Shown piece by piece: positions 28,219-31,103 of a stretch of 31,103 bases of DNA (position 1 is the stretch's first letter; each line of letters opens with the position of its first letter). The translations under genes were made by a program, and so were the position numbers. The stretch is taken from contig JBBQYG010000032.1 in assembly GCA_038208905.1 (NCBI GenBank), forward strand, positions 1 to 31,103, given 5' to 3'. Source of the stretch: Candidatus Sumerlaeia bacterium (GTDB lineage Bacteria; Sumerlaeota; Sumerlaeia; SLMS01). The notes below the pieces were generated by a model. That model was not told the DNA's origin and searched no databases. It saw only the letters and a list, made by a program, of their open reading frames with translations.

Positions 28219-28594
28219 CAGGCATTGATCCTTGCATAGGCCCGCCGCGCCGGGGCGGAGAGGTGGATGGCCAACCCAACTGGCCGGAATTCGACCGCCG
28301 AATTGAGGGAGGCGGCGGCGGGCGGTGCAAGGGGATTGCGGAACGGCAGCGGGCCGGCAGGGATGAGTGCGGCGGGGTGAGGCCTGAACGGCAAAGGTGG
28401 CATTTTGCCATTCGTGGTTGAGCCTCACGAATGAAGGTATGCGTGAGAGGTCCGCGATTTCCTGCAAGCCCCTGTCGGGGAACTCTTCGCAGTTTTTCAT
28501 CGTTTTCCCTTGCCAAGCGGGGGGGGGAAAAAGGTACGCCAATGATGTTGTCCTTAGTGGATCAACTCAGACCTTGCAAGGAGCACGATCCCTC

Positions 28595-28849
28595 ATGAAT
28601 CACCTGCTTTGCGCCGCCGCCGTTGGGCTTTTCGCCCTCGCCGCCGCGCCCATATTCGCCCTGAGTGGCAGCGGTGATTCAGAACCCTTCATTCTGGACA
28701 CTCGGACCAACCAACCCAACTCCGGATTCGCCGATTCCACTCCTTTCGTTCTCGACACCCGCTCGGCACCGCTCAACTCCGGCTTCGCGGACTCCACTCC
28801 GTTCGTCCTCGACACACGAACCTCCATTAACGCTTGGGTATTTCGCTAA
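28595..28849 (+). CDS. 84-aa secreted protein with three DSxPFxLDTR repeats
   Basis: AAGGAG RBS; signal peptide MNHLLCAAAVGLFALAAAPIFA; repeats 2 and 3 (28718-28762, 28775-28819) differ only at synonymous positions, which supports coding. Confidence 0.85.
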   Translation: MNHLLCAAAVGLFALAAAPIFALSGSGDSEPFILDTRTNQPNSGFADSTPFVLDTRSAPLNSGFADSTPFVLDTRTSINAWVFR

Positions 28850-28885: not shown

Positions 28886-30277
28886 ATGATGAAAAATATC
28901 CTCCTGACTGCCTTCCTCGTCGCCTCCCTCGTGGCGCCCGCGCTCATGTCGGCCCAGCCCGTGGTCGGCAATATCACCGCCAGCCAGCGCTCCTCCGGCG
29001 ACAGGGCCGTGGACATCTCCTACGACCTCTCGAACGGTAACGGTGCGATGACTGTCACTGTCCTTGTCTCCAACGACAACGGCGCTACGTTCTCCATCAC
29101 ACCGCAGGCTCAGTACCTCACGGGTGACATCGGCGCCGGAATCAACAACGGCACCGGTTATTCCATCGTGTGGGATGCGGTGACGGACGTGCCGGAGACT
29201 TTCTGGCCCCAGACCCGCATTCGCATCATCGCAACGGAAGAAGGCACTGGGCCCGGCACCGTTGCCCTCGCGATCTCGAGCAACGTCACCGCTCCCGTTC
29301 ATCAGTCCGCCGCCCAGACGCTCACTTTCACTTTCGCGCAGTCCGTCACCGGCTTCGACGCCTCCGACGTGACCGTGACGGGTGCCACCAAGGGTGCCTT
29401 CTCCGGTTCGGGCGCCGCCTATACGCTAGGCATCACGGGCACGGGAGGCACCATTTCCGTATCTGTACCCGAAAGCGCAACCAACCCGGGCAACCTCGCC
29501 TCCACCTTCTCCAACTTCTACCAGGACACCTGGACGGTGACGCTCCCCGGCGCGGTGCCGATGGAACTGATCCGCATCCCGGCGGGGACGTTCACCATGG
29601 GCTCGCCGGTGACGGAACTCTCGCGCGACGACACCGAAACCGAGCACACGGTCACGCTCTCGCAGGACTTCTACCTCGGCAAGACGGAGGTGACACAGCA
29701 GCAGTGGCAGGCGGTGCGCGGCTCGTGGCCGGGCACCGCGCCCTCGGCGGGCAACGGCCTCGGGAATGCCTTCCCCGCCTATAACGTATCACACAATGAC
29801 ATCCAGTCATTCATGGCGGACCTCGACACGGCGATCACGGAGCCGGGCACGTTCGCCCTGCCAACGGAATCGCAGTGGGAGTACGCGGCGCGCGCGGGAA
29901 CGACGACGCGGTTCAACTTCGGCGACGGCTTCGGCGCCGATGAATTCTGCTCCGCGGAGGCCGAGCGGACGAACAACATGTGGTACTGCGGGAACAACTC
30001 GCCGAGCGGCACGAAGGCCGTGGGCCAGAAGCCGGCCAACGCTTGGGGGCTGCGCGACATGCACGGAAACGTTTGGGAATGGTGCGCCGATTGGTTCGGA
30101 CCGTACCCTGGAACCGTCACCGATCCCACGGGGCCTGTGAGTGGTTCGATCCGCGTGATTCGCGGCGGCAGCTGGTACAGCAGCGCCCAGTACTGCCGGT
30201 CGGCCTTTCGTATCTACATCGACCCGTCGTTCCGGTACGACAGCGTCGGGTTCCGCGTTCTTTCTCCAGTCCAGTGA
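28886..30277 (+). CDS. Secreted FGE-sulfatase (SUMF1/CLec-fold) domain protein with N-terminal Ig-like domains; probable DGR variable protein
   Basis: Signal peptide; beta-rich N-terminal domains; MELIRIPAGTFTMGS, TEVTQQQW, LPTESQWEYAARAG, NAWGLRDMHGNVWEWC, RVIRGGSW...GFRV. Confidence 0.92.
   Translation: MMKNILLTAFLVASLVAPALMSAQPVVGNITASQRSSGDRAVDISYDLSNGNGAMTVTVLVSNDNGATFSITPQAQYLTGDIGAGINNGTGYSIVWDAVTDVPETFWPQTRIRIIATEEGTGPGTVALAISSNVTAPVHQSAAQTLTFTFAQSVTGFDASDVTVTGATKGAFSGSGAAYTLGITGTGGTISVSVPESATNPGNLASTFSNFYQDTWTVTLPGAVPMELIRIPAGTFTMGSPVTELSRDDTETEHTVTLSQDFYLGKTEVTQQQWQAVRGSWPGTAPSAGNGLGNAFPAYNVSHNDIQSFMADLDTAITEPGTFALPTESQWEYAARAGTTTRFNFGDGFGADEFCSAEAERTNNMWYCGNNSPSGTKAVGQKPANAWGLRDMHGNVWEWCADWFGPYPGTVTDPTGPVSGSIRVIRGGSWYSSAQYCRSAFRIYIDPSFRYDSVGFRVLSPVQ
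30149..30259 (+). other. Putative DGR variable region (VR)
   Basis: Invariant RGGSW/CRSA/GFR scaffold interleaved with NNY codons (ATC, ATT, TAC, AGC, AGC, TAC, TTT, ATC, TAC, ATC, GAC, TTC, TAC, GAC, AGC, GTC), all derivable from AAY by changing only adenines. Confidence 0.65.
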
Positions 30278-30399
30278 CGTGGGCCAAGCAGCGCAGGCCG
30301 GGCGGGTGCTGCGTGCCGACGGTCAGGAGGTCGAGCGGAGCGAGAGCATGCACCCACCCGAGCCGAAGCGACCGCGAGCACAGTGCAGTTGCTGAAGGG

Positions 30400-30711: not shown

Positions 30712-31103
30712 TCATCCCTGGCCTTCCTCCCTGCCCGGCAGCACCGCCTTGTCATGCGCCGTCAACTCCCGCCGCCCCTTGCAGACGGGCCAGCAGGTGC
30801 AGCCCCAGAAGCGGCGTTTGCGCTTGGGGGTTTTGAGGACCGTGGCGGCGCCGCATCGGGGGCATTGGGGCGGGGTGGCTGTGGGGGTGGCGTTGAGGAG
30901 GGCGTTTGCGAGCCAGCCGGTGCTTGGGGGGGCGGTGGCTCGGGCTTTGGCGAGGAGGGTTTGGAGTTTGTCGCCGTCGATGAGGGCGATGTCGCGCTCG
31001 CGGGCGAGGTCGAGGCATTCGGGGTCGAAGGATTCGGTGGAGAGGAAGTAGGCGCACTTCGCGCGGTCTCGGCGGAGCTCGTCGGCAAACTCGCGAAGGA
31101 TGG
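30712..31103 (-). CDS. 3' part of an Mrr-like restriction endonuclease domain protein with topoisomerase-type C4 zinc finger
   Basis: Not in the ORF track. Open frame from 31101: ILREFADELRRDRAKCAYFLSTESFDPECLDLARERDIALIDGDKLQTLL...PQCPRCGAATVLK...RFWGCTCWPVCKG...GQG*. Confidence 0.75.
   Translation of the reverse strand, partial: ILREFADELRRDRAKCAYFLSTESFDPECLDLARERDIALIDGDKLQTLLAKARATAPPSTGWLANALLNATPTATPPQCPRCGAATVLKTPKRKRRFWGCTCWPVCKGRRELTAHDKAVLPGREEGQG

Follow-up and report, generated by a model that had tools for sequence, protein, structure and literature searches.

TvpA of Treponema denticola, a DGR variable protein of the FGE type, is held by a lipid of its own; for bacterial DGR variable proteins without a lipid anchor, the means of attachment to the cell is largely an open question. 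The only worked example of such anchoring found in our literature searches is the type V pilus of Bacteroides, whose DGR-diversified tip adhesins have their genes immediately downstream of those for the anchor and stalk subunits and are attached by intercalation of a beta-strand into an N-terminal domain (bioRxiv 10.1101/2024.11.15.621889). The type V pilus is also the closest published parallel to the gene pair described here. A variable C-type-lectin head lies at the C-terminus in both, encoded by a gene that adjoins genes of cell-linking subunits. The present partner, however, has neither a lipoprotein cysteine nor a pilin fold, the N-terminal domain of the lectin is not a pilin domain but an Ig-like sandwich of generic type, there is no pilus operon, and the host belongs to another phylum. 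Literature searches returned no description of the peptide unit, the C-terminal tail or the type of partner reported below (in the article text of PMC8092238, ‘C-terminal’, ‘retroelement’ and ‘sorting’ occur 0 times). For the components, this agrees with the view in the earlier note that no description of such a module is known; display of a DGR lectin by an upstream-encoded subunit through beta-strand insertion is, however, already described in the Bacteroides preprint.

The window analysed here, a stretch of 31,103 nt from a Candidatus Sumerlaeia assembly, carries a small gene followed on the same strand by a lectin gene. The 84-aa ORF is a functional, constrained gene that is tied to the lectin gene. 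The features of the pair are as follows:

28578..28583, + strand: AAGGAG, likely ribosome-binding site, 11 nt 5′ of the small-gene ATG (inferred by reading the sequence)
28595..28849 including the stop, + strand: small gene for an 84-aa secreted repeat protein (translation, homologues, selection)
28595..28660, + strand: signal peptide of the 84-aa protein, residues 1-22, with probable cleavage between IFA and LS (read by eye)
28676..28705, + strand: unit 1, DSEPFILDTR (translation)
28718..28762, + strand: unit 2 plus lead-in, NSGFADSTPFVLDTR, with the unit core at 28733-28762 (translation)
28775..28819, + strand: unit 3 plus lead-in, the same peptide as unit 2, with the unit core at 28790-28819 (translation)
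28820..28846, + strand: C-terminal W-tail, TSINAWVFR (translation; the motif recurs genome-wide)
28886..30277, + strand: gene for a 463-aa secreted protein with Ig-like, Big_12 and FGE-type C-type-lectin domains (Pfam, AlphaFold, structure matches)
28955..29245, + strand: N-terminal Ig-like domain, residues 24-120, of the ‘ASQR...VDISYDL’ type, proposed docking site (AlphaFold)
29270..29461, + strand: Big_12 Ig-like domain, residues 129-192 (Pfam E 6.3e-6, narrowly missing the curated cut-off; well folded in the AlphaFold model)
29564..30262, + strand: FGE-sulfatase/C-type-lectin domain, residues 227-459 (Pfam E 6.8e-45)
30090..30270, + strand: variable region of the lectin gene (NNC-codon differences from C193 and L144)
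30271..30390, + strand: conserved 3′ flank common to the variable-region genes on C193 and C3 (sequence comparison; identical in L144)

Translation of 28595-28849 agrees with the layout first proposed in the earlier note, a signal peptide followed by three DSxPFxLDTR units and the tail TSINAWVFR, and the coordinates place the end of the gene 36 nt before the lectin gene (28886, same strand), as had also been stated; no terminator-like site was found in this gap. The unit consensus in the three copies is (G/A)DSxPFxLDTR. The two NSGFADSTPFVLDTR blocks (28718-28762 and 28775-28819) encode the same 15 aa and differ at 7 bases, all in third codon positions, giving 7 synonymous and 0 non-synonymous differences over 11.8 synonymous sites (pS = 0.59, dN = 0; P ~1.5e-5 that 7 random differences would all be synonymous). 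This fixes the reading frame and demonstrates selection on the peptide, in keeping with the original reading of the repeats. The 57-nt period was not reported by Tandem Repeats Finder, so the repeat is kept as peptide and not as DNA. The leader, called by eye from its hydrophobic run, ends FALSGS without a cysteine, leaving a mature protein of ~62 aa with no significant Pfam or NCBIfam match (the sole Pfam row, AGA2 at E 0.28, is below the cut-off). The Sec-exported product probably has no fold of its own and consists only of linear motifs plus the W-tail. Close to the same leader, GLFALAAAPIFALSGSGDS, is found in a partner family of ~150 aa. This leader (28595-28663) is conserved to an unusual degree and is similar to that of the C193 lipoprotein lectin, AAAFALSGCGDDS, which has the lipidated Cys where the present leader has Ser.

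The genes around the small gene encode MetK, an SDR and a T2SS-E ATPase; neither a reverse transcriptase nor maturation, protease or export genes were seen nearby. A RiPP or pheromone precursor would have maturation and export genes beside it and a leader other than a Sec signal; given its neighbours and its Sec-type leader, the 84-aa protein was rejected as such. Avd, the DGR accessory protein, is a small cytoplasmic helical bundle encoded beside the template repeat and reverse transcriptase; the 84-aa protein has a signal peptide, the model of a homologue is non-helical beyond the leader and no reverse transcriptase lies nearby, so this assignment was discarded. An anchor or stalk pilin of the type V kind was dismissed given the leader without cysteine, the mature length of ~62 aa and the lack of a significant Pfam/NCBIfam match, and an FGE substrate because homologues do not keep the proline of the unit, which also does not show C/S-x-P-x-R spacing.

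The 463-aa lectin has a signal peptide but neither a lipobox cysteine nor a W-tail, and its C-terminus is the variable region, as previously read. In the AlphaFold model, the Ig-like domain (residues 24-120) has six to seven strands (pLDDT 72-90) and its structure matches are only generic Ig-like ones (Z 7.3-7.8). The C-terminal part matches PvdO (Z 7.5) and TvpA (2y3c, Z 6.9, 28% identity over 149 aligned residues), and Pfam and structure matches together identify the C-terminal C-type-lectin/FGE-type fold of DGR variable proteins. The window lectin therefore shares its variable-domain class with TvpA but differs in having no lipobox, while its paralogue on C193 has LSGC. Compared with that paralogue, NNC codons differ at their first two bases, and the flanks on either side are identical. 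Differences from the near-identical strain L144 within 30090-30270 likewise affect the first two bases of NNC codons, and there at least 130 nt 3′ of the variable region are identical, and P0009 has 99% identity to the lectin over the first 230 aa and differs from it in the variable region with the same codon pattern. This pattern is the signature of adenine-directed DGR mutagenesis: a 3′ variable region with AAC-derived codon changes and conserved flanks, of which the 3′ flank (30271..30390) may act as a homing signal. No DGR reverse transcriptase and, by adenine-tolerant scan, no template repeat was found in the assembly (93.9% complete, 301 contigs), and RVT_1 matches only a maturase of the group II intron kind on C289 (L001:976-2319; TIGR04416 at 349.5 bits, cut-off 300). 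The proposed status of DGR variable protein is supported by the fold and the codon variation; the reverse transcriptase and template repeat may be missing only from this incomplete assembly.

Lectin paralogues on C193 (5877-6830) and C3 (34081-36426) have the same last residues and 3′ flank, and these shared ends depart from the window sequence at scattered codons only. The C193 lectin is a lipoprotein with an LSGC lipobox; that on C3 lacks a signal peptide and has a large P-loop NTPase-like region as its N-terminal fusion partner. A single diversifier would then act on targets in three different cell compartments or anchoring modes. Within the window, 48/101 differences from L144 fall at 29486-29800, outside the variable region, and this block has the look of a mosaic formed by recombination among paralogous lectin genes. 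The cassette also has a second, decayed copy at ~2250-2450 of C102 (L120:1471-1600), comprising a leader start (MKHLVRAVAVG), a deletion, an Ig-like fragment, TASQRPSGDRAVDISYDLANGNGPMTVS (86% identical), and further on an FGE-domain fragment with stops and frame changes. In this genome, the ASQR-type Ig domain is present only in the lectin adjoining the small gene and in this decayed copy, and the FxLDT unit is confined to the small-gene ORF.

Small homologues with the same build as the 84-aa protein include P0002 (84 aa, 60% identity) and P0003 (101 aa); P0033 and P0036 are further small homologues. Relatives of 148-157 aa, one of them from Candidatus Sumerlaeia, have a near-identical leader, then SGSGDSxxGxLDTVAP, an Ig-like body and the end NVADWSLLDQ. 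In the AlphaFold model of the 149-aa homologue P0004, the body (residues ~40-137, pLDDT 70-89) is an FN3-like sandwich, for which Foldseek gave weak FN3 matches only (E >= 2.7e-3), and apart from the leader helix (residues 3-22) and one short turn there is no helix. Neither the unit nor the W-tail is part of the core; both have low pLDDT and look like free linear motifs. Relatives carry the same kind of W-tail, and the layout of the partner family is a signal peptide, 1-4 units at the mature N-terminus, an optional body and a W-tail. With its units directly after the signal peptide, its W-tail (a loose fit to the consensus) and, 36 nt away, a lectin with one of the two Ig-like domain types (ASQR or QQPDG) found beside this family, the 84-aa protein is, judging from sequence, the minimal form of a partner family encoded beside hypervariable FGE-type lectins.

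A unit profile searched against 1.84 billion representatives returned 97 clusters (E<=1e-3) in two groups. Small proteins of 70-101 aa carry 1-4 units and the tail xxxxW(V/I/L)(I/V/T)(R/H/F/Y), and at least nine clusters share the build of signal peptide, units and tail. Large secreted proteins carry N-terminal arrays of up to ~14 strict units, then cadherin, LRR, LamG, TSP3 or PKD domains. The unit is thus not special to the 84-aa protein, contrary to what had been supposed. No Pfam or NCBIfam model covers it, PDB sequence searches found no solved structure containing the repeat, and the ESM Atlas returned nothing above noise (scores of at most 0.80). A unit alignment profile had no match in 4 other genomes, a blank that is uninformative, as one of the four, G073, does have divergent units. 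A further repeat of similar form, GESPPxIIADTR, occurs in two of the large unit-array proteins (P0029, P0032). C-terminal tails of the FYR(L/V) or KAWxKLP type are found on many unit-array proteins and may be motifs that other lineages use as tails. Read by eye, P0016, P0021 and P0026 are dockerin-like at the N-terminus; Pfam gives no dockerin match there.

Several of these results bear on whether the small gene encodes a tether-like protein at all. It could be a functionless, decayed remnant of a gene for a ~150-aa partner, given that the FN3-like body of the larger relatives is missing and that a truly decayed cassette copy does exist on C102. The synonymous-only divergence of units 2 and 3, the retention of the same architecture across the small clusters and a near-invariant gene among the metagenome differences listed (see below) disfavour this explanation, which is extremely improbable. 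Alternatively, cleavage after each DTR could free three ~19-aa signal or ligand peptides from a multi-copy precursor. In favour of such a precursor, the units are identical, end in Arg, are separated by short linkers and vary in number between strains, but proteins of 200-2000 aa begin with the same units, conservation of the last unit extends to the tail and the neighbourhood contains no maturation, protease or export genes, making a precursor very unlikely.

In contigs from four metagenomes of different studies, the differences listed include a single one in the small gene, the synonymous change 28828 T>C (Ile78), and many in the lectin gene. The L143 small gene has two replacements, one at an x position of unit 2 and one in a linker. 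L144 (3001-3312), a metagenome contig representing a natural strain, has four in-frame units instead of three, and the DNA of the extra unit begins as unit 3 and continues as unit 2. Such a unit 3/unit 2 recombinant points to unequal crossing-over, and the natural range of one to four units offers a direct handle on valency.

The earlier note had also taken the tail for a recurrent C-terminal motif, and this is the case in this genome: 28 ORFs carry the strict pattern anchored at the C-terminus, against ~4 expected from the frequency of the pattern anywhere in ORFs. Most are long with signal-peptide-like N-termini. The motif, (S/T)(S/A)Vx(D/G/N)Wx(M/L)(F/Y)x, was noted in at least 28 ORFs, including examples on C12, C18, C34, C48, C124, C135 and C248, and no curated family matches it. 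TSINAWVFR itself just misses the strict pattern and is included by a slightly looser one, its W-V-F-R fitting the genome consensus W-x-M/L-F/Y loosely; in small homologues the C-termini are WFLH, WIIF, WIIR or WTIR. A Pfam scan of 20 tail-bearing proteins matched 9 to a family (including TSP3, FG-GAP, cadherin-like, F5/8-C, lamin-tail (LTD), GSDH and NHL) and 11 to none; TSP3, FG-GAP, cadherin-like, F5/8-C and LTD are typical of surface proteins.

In PEP-CTERM, LPXTG and GlyGly-CTERM signals a motif is followed by a membrane helix and basic residues, and the T9SS CTD is a folded domain of ~80 aa. The W-tail resembles these in being an extreme C-terminal motif common to many secreted proteins of one lineage but, with three to five residues after the W and no helix, basic cluster or ~80-aa domain, it is unlike these known sorting tags. 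As the window tail ends three residues after W and has no NCBIfam match, assignment to any of these four systems was rejected.

Across 41 related genomes, the small protein has 14 matches outside its own genome. Thirteen of these adjoin a match to the lectin N-terminal Ig domain and one lies directly downstream of a long lectin gene, so that 14/14 adjoin a lectin gene and the predicted genomic co-occurrence of units with the lectin is found. In the pairs inspected, a 4-nt overlap between the stop and start codons of the two genes is common. Seven lineages (several genera) have a unit-bearing gene next to an Ig-lectin gene, either upstream or downstream, with partner bodies that are FN3-like, NBR1-Ig, CARDB or PKD/TSP3, or absent, for example:

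L014, Sumerlaeota MAG: 198 aa with three units, an NBR1-type Ig body and a W-tail, upstream of the lectin gene
L151, G043: 82 aa with three units and the tail DWQLYR, downstream of the lectin gene
L159, G047: 1247 aa with two units, CARDB domains and the tail AWVLYR, downstream of the lectin gene
L008, G033: large protein with four units and a hydrolase body, downstream of the lectin gene
L145 = L146, metagenome contigs: 951 aa with four units and PKD plus TSP3 repeats, starting 17 nt downstream of the lectin

Unit type and Ig type go together: FxLDT-type units pair with ASQR-type Ig domains at 8/8 loci (seven lineages), and a single GxLDTxAP-type unit plus FN3 body pairs with QQPDG-type Ig domains at 12/12 loci (six genomes). 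Related loci share labels, so the match fits specific recognition without proving it, and inheritance of entire cassettes, instead of co-adaptation, may account for it. Of 40 Ig-domain places outside the own genome, 18 have a unit-bearing neighbour in the fetched DNA (~4 kb around), 18 do not (two of these, G007:C97 and G007:C185, judged by coordinates only) and 4 are not judgeable. The Ig domain therefore does not need such a neighbour. No ORF with at least two strict units was found within ~4 kb of Ig-profile matches in other phyla (L022, L027, L041, L062), and two tandem lectin genes without the ASQR-type Ig N-terminus have no unit-bearing partner upstream.

The 18/40 places without a unit-bearing neighbour suit an explanation in which the two proteins never bind, the small one being an independent surface or matrix peptide (e.g. 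a spacer or adhesin ligand) that merely shares regulation or a pathway with the lectin. Unit arrays at the head of many large adhesin-like proteins with cadherin, LRR or LamG domains point the same way. Such co-expression is nevertheless unlikely, if worth keeping in mind, since start and stop codons overlap in many relatives, adjacency survives changes of gene order and body domain, and the type of unit follows the type of Ig domain.

The reading that we prefer, tentatively, as its probability falls a little short of the halfway mark, is that the 84-aa protein may act in trans as a tether holding the lectin at the cell surface. Its units would bind the N-terminal Ig-like domain of the lectin, probably by beta-strand addition, the W-tail would supply a sorting or retention signal, and several units could hold several lectin heads. 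The display-adaptor idea of the earlier note is thus partly supported: of its refuting conditions, neither missing co-occurrence nor a tail that fails to recur in this genome applies. The lectin cannot carry a W-tail itself because its C-terminus is the variable region, so that the DGR target would receive the tail in trans. A tether also fits the anchoring of paralogous lectins at the N-terminus, by the lipobox on C193 and by other N-terminal modules elsewhere, and such a module would explain these N-terminal anchoring modules. Against strand addition, the Ig-like domain (residues 24-120) is predicted complete and looks to have no obvious missing strand. The unit may instead bind a general envelope component, given its spread in large secreted proteins.

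Chaperone-usher pili use donor-strand complementation by N-terminal extensions. The units resemble these in forming a short, alternating-hydrophobic N-terminal peptide directly after the signal peptide, but differ in that no usher or chaperone genes were seen here and the acceptor domain is predicted complete. Cohesin-dockerin scaffoldins are alike in that repeated docking sites on one chain, with an anchor at one end, could gather heads; the units differ in being linear motifs of ~10 aa and not folded modules. An actual cohesin-dockerin pair was rejected, as neither the 84-aa protein nor the lectin has such a Pfam match.

The polarity of the tether could also be reversed, with the last unit and the W-tail forming a hairpin that contacts the lectin or carries it, piggy-back, across the outer layer, and the upstream units binding an envelope component or another cell. 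Across five small homologues the last unit plus tail is the best-conserved segment, the first units having decayed in P0033 and P0036, and minimal forms retain only one unit and the tail, in L118 (61 aa) behind a leader, and in L106 (69 aa); units are, moreover, widespread in other proteins. However, as at least 28 ORFs unrelated to one another share the W-tail, its binding site would be a general receptor and not the lectin, and the L145 partner has units but a tail different from the W-tail. Overall, this arrangement seems quite improbable.

A wider extension of the preferred tether, and a doubtful one, is that the FxLDT unit could be an undescribed, widespread peptide docking tag read by ASQR-type Ig domains and the W-tail a new phylum-specific sorting or retention signal. 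If so, this would be a cohesin-dockerin-like system built from 10-residue linear motifs, in which hypervariable heads plug onto scaffolds ranging from a 70-aa tether to multi-domain proteins of >1,200 aa and the number of heads is set by the number of units. A two-gene docking and sorting module of this kind would give a simple, testable answer to anchoring in a little-known phylum, and two uncurated elements, the FxLDT unit and the W-tail, would become searchable in other genomes.

Beyond the cassette, an ORF on the opposite strand (30712-31101, -) runs off the end of the window; it contains a zinc-finger-like stretch rich in Cys and, read by eye, resembles a protein of the restriction-endonuclease type.
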